From: Candidatus Aenigmatarchaeota archaeon
GTDB taxonomy: Archaea; Aenigmatarchaeota; Aenigmatarchaeia; JACPZZ01
Length of the DNA: 64,000 nucleotides
Direction of reading: 5' to 3'
Assembly: GCA_043801595.1 (NCBI GenBank)
Contig: JAZDLW010000019.1
Span: 32,949 to 96,948 of the forward strand
Shown piece by piece: positions 5,606 to 5,748 of the stretch (position 1 is its first letter; each line of letters starts with the position of its first letter). The notes below the pieces were generated by a model, which was given only the letters and a program-made list of their open reading frames with translations, searched no databases and was not told where the DNA came from. The position numbers and the translations under genes are program-made.

Positions 5606-5748
5606 CATAGGAAATTATCGGATTTCCTATGCGGGAAATCATCGGATTTCCCGCACACGAAAACCTGCGGGTTTTCTTTGTGCACGGAAACATCGGTTTC
5701 CGTTGTTTGGAAAAGTTTGATCAAATAAGCCTTTTCATAAAAGGCTTA
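5606..5748 (+). repeat. Array of five back-to-back perfect or near-perfect hairpins in the pyrB/MBL divergent intergenic region
   Basis: H1 5606-5631 is CATAGGAAAT|TATCGG|ATTTCCTATG. H2 5631-5654 is GCGGGAAAT|CATCGG|ATTTCCCGC. H3 5659-5676 is GAAAACC|TGCG|GGTTTTC. H4 5684-5703 is ACGGAAAC|ATCG|GTTTCCGT. TTTGATCAAA follows at 5716-5725. H5 5726-5748 is TAAGCCTTTT|CAT|AAAAGGCTTA. Confidence 0.85.

Follow-up and report, generated by a model that had tools for sequence, protein, structure and literature searches.

A 180-nt hairpin block between pyrB and an MBL-fold hydrolase gene: a probable copy of a genus-restricted, apparently mobile mosaic repeat family in an Aenigmatarchaeota genome

In the host genome—an Aenigmatarchaeota (DPANN) MAG of 814 kb in 32 contigs, with 45% GC and a completeness of 86% (G000)—the spacer between pyrB and the divergently oriented gene for an MBL-fold hydrolase holds five consecutive hairpins, which raises the question of whether such an array serves the two genes that it separates or belongs to something else. 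The original prediction offered four roles, namely a bidirectional terminator or insulator, a regulator-binding array, an RNA stability element, and a miniature mobile repeat. Only the last of these fits the evidence, with the block absent in congeners and the positions of such hairpins unconserved. The five hairpins are probably one 180-nt copy of a genus-restricted, apparently mobile family of mosaic hairpin repeats; the array is not a control device made for pyrB and the MBL gene.

The window referred to below is the whole 64-kb stretch of DNA analysed, in which pyrB (4572-5510, minus strand, with its ATG at 5510), the MBL-fold hydrolase gene (5778-6428, plus strand, with its start codon at 5778), and the eIF2-alpha and PAC2 genes of the neighbourhood were assigned with Pfam, the last two marking the host as an archaeon. 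Comparisons were made within a genus set of seven genomes with pairwise identities of 67-81%. The genomes closest to the host are 67-83% identical to it, the best metagenome contig standing at 83%, and Californian groundwater is the source of the related records, which are Candidatus Aenigmatarchaeota MAGs.

The hairpin block in the pyrB-MBL spacer

All five stem-loops predicted between 5606 and 5748 were recovered in the sequence, in the output of a repeat finder, and in the folds (Table 1). Folding of the region as single-stranded DNA gave −45.4 kcal/mol, compared with −17.7±2.9 kcal/mol for shuffled sequences (z −9.7), and reproduced all five hairpins; the RNA fold gave a z of −5.2. In both folds, the first four hairpins are enclosed by an outer stem. 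Hairpins 1 and 2 abut, with G5631 common to both, just as had been described. Hairpin 3, listed originally among the perfect stems, has a perfect 7-bp core (GAAAACC/GGTTTTC, 5659-5665/5670-5676), but its outer extension (CACAC/TTTGTG) is imperfect. The TG that follows the 5684-5703 hairpin completes CAACGG on the minus strand. The array ends in the class-2 module described originally, and hairpin 5 with its tail is a separate module. The pattern GGAAAY-N4-6-RTTTCC occurs six times in the window compared with 0.1 expected, a count reached in none of 100 shuffles.

Table 1. Features of the hairpin block, its flanks, and related hairpins, in positions of the window
Feature	Position	Strand	Basis
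Conserved TATA-like box TTGAAATTTAAG, candidate pyrB promoter, centre ~27 nt from pyrB ATG	5531-5542	-	alignment of four genomes
Conserved TATA-like box GGTTATTAAAAACAAATAAC, ATATAAAAACAAAAAAC-type, candidate ancestral MBL promoter	5557-5576	+	aligns with ATATAAAAACAAAAAACAG of G006 and G004
Lineage-specific 180-nt mosaic repeat block	5598-5777	-	pyrB-MBL spacer alignment: host genome only
Outer stem, left arm, class-2 type, TCAAACTT	5598-5605	.	pairs with 5713-5720 in both folds
Hairpin 1, H4 of the four-hairpin module, CATAGGAAAT-TATCGG-ATTTCCTATG	5606-5615/5622-5631	-	aligns with H4 of nine other arrays
Hairpin 2, H3 position, GCGGGAAAT-CATCGG-ATTTCCCGC	5631-5639/5646-5654	-	repeat finder, array alignment
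Hairpin 3, H2 position, GAAAAC type, imperfect, CACACGAAAACC-TGCG-GGTTTTCTTTGTG	5654-5682	-	repeat finder, fold, array alignment
Hairpin 4, H1 position, ACGGAAAC-ATCG-GTTTCCGT	5684-5691/5696-5703	-	repeat finder, array alignment
Outer stem, right arm, AAGTTTGA, within linker box AAAAGTTTGATCAAA	5713-5720	.	ssDNA and RNA folds, cluster nesting
Hairpin 5, class-2, TAAGCCTTTT-CAT-AAAAGGCTTA, arms 5726-5735/5739-5748, with tail AAGCGAAAAGAGAATG	5726-5763	+	genome-wide AAAGAGAATG sites
Two-hairpin family member, ACGGAAAGC.. and CATAGGAAATT..	10777-10824	+	sequence inspection
Two-hairpin family member	13242-13289 (C21:46190-46237)	+	pattern search
Single family hairpin, one stem mismatch	62449-62475	.	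pattern search

Three of the hairpins had been regarded as variants of one design, with covarying stems that argued for selection rather than for simple duplication. The three hairpins do carry the loop ATCG(G); however, because loops differ between copies elsewhere in the genome, three equal loops at one locus look like local duplication. Indeed, the 18-nt cores of H3 and H4 at the locus are 94% identical, and thus H3 is probably a local duplicate of H4.

The two genes are also divergent neighbours in the congeners G004, G001, and G006, with spacers of 73, 76, and 106 nt, respectively, compared with 267 nt in the host genome. In the alignment of these four genomes, the congeners show a single 180-nt gap, which corresponds to 5598-5777 and ends exactly at the MBL ATG (5778), the block standing directly before this codon. 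In G002 and G005, a different gene lies upstream of the MBL gene, and the array is absent there; the block is therefore missing in all five congeners possessing the MBL gene. The polarity, gain versus loss, is a matter of parsimony, with five congeners lacking the block and the relatives distant. The block consists of three modules—that is, a four-hairpin module in reverse orientation, the outer stem enclosing it, and the class-2 hairpin with its tail—and a search for a full-length twin returned matches to single modules only.

The array had been thought to occupy the space of both promoters, but the conserved TATA-like boxes lie to its left, at 5531-5542 and 5557-5576. For the pyrB box, GAAATTTAA is kept in three of the four aligned genomes, with AAGATTTAA in G001; for the MBL box, the counterpart in G006 and G004 lies ~40 nt upstream of the MBL ATG, and in the host genome the repeat block intervenes. 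Across the genome, hexamers of the TATA type are most frequent 26-40 nt before start codons, and the two shared boxes are therefore read as promoters. The alignment suggests that the block was inserted downstream of the MBL promoter box and upstream of the pyrB promoter box, replacing neither. The AATCAA/TTGATCAAA boxes were rejected as a general promoter, since they keep no fixed distance to start codons, unlike the TATA-like hexamers with their peak at −40 to −26. A 9-codon upstream ORF (MKKAVLWAR*, 5761-5790) starts in the AAAGAGAATG tail module and runs across the MBL start codon; of the 21 AAAGAGAATG sites in the genome, about eight lie 5-17 nt upstream of a gene start.

A hairpin family of one genus

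A genome-wide dyad search, of the kind proposed in the original prediction, returned ~90 GGAAA..TTTCC hairpins in 55 clusters of the host genome, with one to three such hairpins in each cluster. Perfect hairpins as a whole (stem of at least 7 bp, loop of 3-8 nt) number 1010, compared with 312 in shuffled sequence, and their loop-proximal arms are mostly GGAAAC, AGGAAA, and CGGAAA. Hairpins with stems of at least 8 bp make up 3.5% of non-coding versus 0.32% of coding DNA, an 11-fold difference in density. Every one of the seven genus genomes contains the motif GTGCAYAGGAAAY-N3-7-RTTTCCTRTG, and a search of 34 other genomes of the class found no occurrence; the family motif was also detected in 23 metagenome contigs, including some derived from another aquifer.

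Within the window, the recurrences at 10777-10797 and 10799-10824 are exact as first described; the one at 62449-62475 is present too, but with one mismatch (CATGGG vs CCTATG). A different repeat, 85 nt long and 95% identical between its copies, occurs at 53326-53410 of the window (C21:86274-86358) and at C21:99301-99385, the second copy lying near a DDE transposase gene just beyond the window.

The arrays contain an ordered four-hairpin module of ~105 nt, H1 to H4, with at least ten copies in the host genome, ten arrays having been aligned. Its units are H1 ACGGAAAGC, H2 ACGGAAACC, H3 CAYAGGAAAA, and H4 CATAGGAAAY; the linkers between them, GTG and CCGTG, are conserved, and the array at the locus aligned with the nine others as a diverged H1-H4 member on the minus strand. 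Thirteen of the 55 clusters, the locus included, are nested between class-2 stem arms (TAAACTTYCT type). The AAAGAGAATG sequence has 21 sites genome-wide, ~17 of them preceded by a class-2 hairpin, and its best copies are 94-95% identical. Furthermore, a 136-nt four-hairpin array is 98.5% identical between C17:16648-16783 and C27:572-707, with unrelated flanks, and a third copy at C23:156996-157133 is 88% identical; among the candidates for a recent copy event, the C17/C27 pair is the best.

The covariation of the stems noted originally was borne out, with compensatory double changes at ten of the 30 consensus pairs (RNAalifold, ten aligned arrays). At stem positions unused in the selection of copies, 71 of 77 and 46 of 57 pairs are Watson-Crick, compared with 34 and 19 in shuffles. 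Stem mismatches in the sense orientation comprise 14 G·T, 14 A·C, and ten others. The equality of G·T and A·C indicates that neither strand's RNA is favoured, and thus that palindromy is kept at the DNA level. The stems of the family are conserved in sequence and the loops are free, with the inner segment between the GGAAA and TTTCC half-sites varying from 5 to 9 nt.

Turnover, mobility, and competing readings

Positions of the hairpins change rapidly between genomes. Reciprocal best hits between the host and its congener G006, of which nearly the whole genome was covered, number 521 and have a median amino-acid identity of 68%, the gene calls behind these statistics being crude longest-ORF calls filtered by reciprocal best hits. 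Among 421 syntenic spacers, hairpins occur in 29 in the host and 15 in G006, and two are shared, versus ~1 expected by chance. In the clean cases, occupied spacers of 130-360 nt correspond to spacers of 4-60 nt in the other genome. An array of ~170 nt in a metagenome contig (83% identity to the host) stands where the host spacer is 45 nt; a protein-based metagenome scan for closer relatives with exact empty sites returned none.

Discrete units were also found inside genes. In G006, an IS200 tnpA is cut directly after GTGCA by a 48-nt two-hairpin unit that contains TGA and lacks a target duplication (L073 1463-1511; G006:C5 ~95,320-95,368); the orthologue in G004 (L072) is intact. The second case in G006 is a Sua5/YrdC-like gene with two hairpins in a 48-nt insert that keeps the frame and adds 16 codons (G006:C3:114372-114418); the host orthologue lacks this insert, whose flanks are an A-run, so that target duplication is ambiguous there. 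Inspection by eye lent no support to a splicing (BHB) reading of these two intragenic inserts, no exon-intron 4-bp helix with flanking 3-nt bulges being seen. In the host genome, three family hairpins lie in the 190-nt intron of tRNA-Lys(UUU) (C30:21680-21943) and two in the 100-nt intron of tRNA-Asp(GUC) (C30:22003-22176), 11 of the 17 tRNAs detected by aragorn having introns. The L19e gene (C31:14567-15140) ends in a C-terminal tail of ~30 amino acids that reads through family hairpins and is missing from the G006 orthologue.

One spacer element is orthologous between the host (C17 ~43,085-43,190) and G006 (C1 ~102,830-102,930). It reads GCGATGAAGCGA-[CACAGGAAAC..GTTTCCTGTG][CACGGTTTGC..GCAAACC]..GAGCTGAGCAC. 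Its flanks resemble box C (GATGA) and box D (CTGA), a hairpin in it shows a compensatory change from A-T to G-C, and the element may be a C/D-type small RNA carrying family hairpins. Some copies may thus be retained by selection or co-opted, as these orthologous hairpins with their compensatory change suggest.

The search for a mobilising enzyme covered Y1_Tnp/HUH (PF01797), TnpB (PF07282), tyrosine integrase, and reverse transcriptase, none of which was found in the host assembly (86% complete). Four DDE_Tnp_1 genes are present and were rejected as the driver, since they have no ends related to the family and show no similarity between copies. The Y1 transposase (PF01797) is sporadic in the class (16 of 121 genomes) and occurs in two of the seven genus genomes, G004 and G006, whose proteins score 113.5 bits as IS200 (cut-off 55) and stay below the RAYT cut-off (42.6 bits, cut-off 80). 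This IS200 was likewise rejected, its ends being unrelated to the GGAAA stems and the G006 copy being itself disrupted by a family unit; family hairpins flanking the two Y1 genes were sought and not found.

The sequences display lineage-specific presence, quick turnover, discrete 48-nt units, array-level copies, nesting, and DNA-level symmetry. In the mechanism proposed for the mobile reading, the units would be non-autonomous DNA on which an enzyme acts in trans, its targets being the conserved GGAAA/TTTCC stems, probably in the form of folded single strands, and the arrays would then grow through nesting and local duplication. At the pyrB-MBL locus, the block would be a neutral or mildly disruptive passenger, either transcribed as a ~190-nt structured leader of the MBL mRNA or providing, in its AT-rich class-2 hairpin, a substitute TATA box.

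Local functions were weighed against the setting of the clusters, which occur in tandem, divergent (ten cases), and convergent spacers at about background frequencies. The proposed terminator or insulator did not hold up: because the 5′ ends of both genes face the array, such an element is geometrically unneeded at the locus, and the family has no preference for 3′ ends. The hallmarks of a transcription terminator are also missing: both flanking genes start at the spacer, the ten divergent spacers offer no gene end to be terminated, and the 3′ flanks (AAGTTT/GTTGTTTGG) contain no T-run of five or more. A CRISPR array was rejected, given that the variable parts are 3-8-nt loops inside palindromes and not spacers of ~25-50 nt between direct repeats. 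That the array is instead a functional RNA—an MBL 5′ leader, with 3′ UTR hairpins elsewhere, controlling stability or translation in a family kept by the host for RNA-level regulation—appears improbable. With the conserved TATA-like box of the MBL gene upstream of it, the block is probably transcribed, the RNA fold is stable (z = −5.2), copies in tRNA introns are certainly transcribed, one orthologous copy has been retained with a compensatory change, and the clusters are weakly co-directional with neighbouring genes (17:7); orientation relative to the local gene strand (25/43) or to GC skew (28/43) was not significant. However, five congeners lack the block in the MBL leader, positions are unconserved (two of 42 occupied spacers shared), and the 14:14 balance of G·T and A·C favours neither strand's RNA. 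Furthermore, conserved stem sequences with free loops are the reverse of what most functional RNAs show, and the copies include both orientations and divergent spacers and have no Rfam match, the scan of the 64-kb window having given none at the gathering score.

A regulator-binding array fares no better, and the more general proposal that the GGAAA-N-TTTCC dyads are duplex sites for a dimeric protein (a regulator, nucleoid protein, or insulator) organising the divergent pyrB/MBL promoter region is very doubtful. The half-sites are invariant across copies and the array stands in a divergent promoter region, as such a role would have it, but the distance between half-sites varies with the 5-9-nt inner segments, compensatory changes maintain base pairing and not any constant recognition sequence, there are further sites in tRNA introns, coding sequences, and convergent spacers, and the site is unconserved in congeners. 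Equally hard to credit is a multi-copy family of small-RNA genes, each four-hairpin module having its own expression signals: copies have neither a consistent upstream TATA-like box nor a downstream T-run, are nested in other repeats, introns, and genes, occupy non-syntenic positions between species, and give no Rfam hit, all of which weighs against the conserved H1-H4 order and linkers in at least ten copies and the covarying stems that might suggest such genes.

The mobile-repeat reading also has a stronger form, which is unlikely as it stands. The modules would constitute a self-propagating archaeal system that is driven by an unrecognised enzyme or a DNA-hairpin pathway of the host, not by a RAYT, IS200, or DDE transposase, and that actively remodels genes, because they land in tRNA introns, gene ends, and leaders; at this locus, they would have replaced a short ancestral MBL leader and would now supply a TATA-like centre (TTTTCATAAAAGG, 5732-5744) and the 9-codon upstream ORF.

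Among cellular genomes, some of the smallest and most streamlined are those of DPANN archaea. The host genome nonetheless tolerates proliferating hairpin repeats within the little non-coding DNA that it has, within tRNA introns, and within genes, with no recognisable transposase for them in the assembly. If the family is mobile, palindromic repeats of the REP/BIME type are not confined to bacteria or to RAYT enzymes, and such repeats would be a tractable source of variation in leaders, gene tails, and introns in uncultivated archaea. In annotation, hairpin arrays of this kind should not be taken for terminators or operators that serve the adjoining genes.

Comparison with known repeat systems

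REP, BIME, and REPIN elements of Proteobacteria are mobilised by RAYT (PMC3116915, PMC3733652), and REP palindromes carry a conserved unpaired GTAG (or CGTC) tag at one end (PMC3733652). Like REP and BIME, the present family consists of short, high-copy, mostly extragenic palindromes (90 hairpins in 55 clusters). As in BIME, differing units are joined into mosaics by conserved linkers, and as in REP, there are compensatory stem variants, free loops, occasional intragenic copies, and a patchy, lineage-specific abundance. Unlike REP, the aligned copies lack GTAG/CGTC and are flanked by (C)GTG before CAYAGG stems and CAAC before ACGG stems; furthermore, H1 to H4 are ordered head-to-tail in a single orientation, whereas REPINs are typically inverted HH/TT dimers. 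In addition, no RAYT gene, which in REP systems is usually flanked by the REPs, was found for the family, the host is a DPANN archaeon, and copies also reside in tRNA introns, all unlike in the case of REP-RAYT systems.

A second comparison is with PATEs and other miniature elements derived from IS200/IS605 (PMC3119063, PMC6006769). The minimal unit of the family, 48 nt with two hairpins of subterminal type, is PATE-like, and IS200-type TnpA is present in two of the seven genus genomes. The tnpA insertion occurred after GTGCA and without duplication, and the two intragenic cases give no common target tetranucleotide. Unlike with PATEs, however, the ends of the resident IS200 (GATAGGG../CCCCGCAC.. 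hairpins) do not resemble the family, and in the host genome, the richest in family copies, no TnpA was detected.

MITEs moved by DDE transposases, such as Correia elements, are surveyed elsewhere (PMC11602168). The family shares with them its small size, non-coding nature, and intergenic location, and inverted repeats of 8-16 nt enclose some of its copies; in contrast to MITEs, this bracketing is limited to 13 of the 55 clusters, the clear case has no target-site duplication, and the search for a parent IS with the same terminal repeats gave none. The BOX elements of Streptococcus pneumoniae are modular, with a small number of short box types arranged in a fixed order, and are highly structured and located in spacers near gene starts; like the family, they are not known to have a transposase. 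The family is likewise modular, ordered, structured, and present in spacers near gene starts, but its sequences are unrelated to those of BOX elements, its module grammar is different, and its host is archaeal.

Generic REP-like palindromes have been surveyed in Euryarchaeota and Crenarchaeota (PMC12306157), and the literature search found no description of the present family in Aenigmatarchaeota or DPANN. Overall, the family resembles REP/BIME and MITE/PATE elements most, works like them, and belongs to none of these groups.
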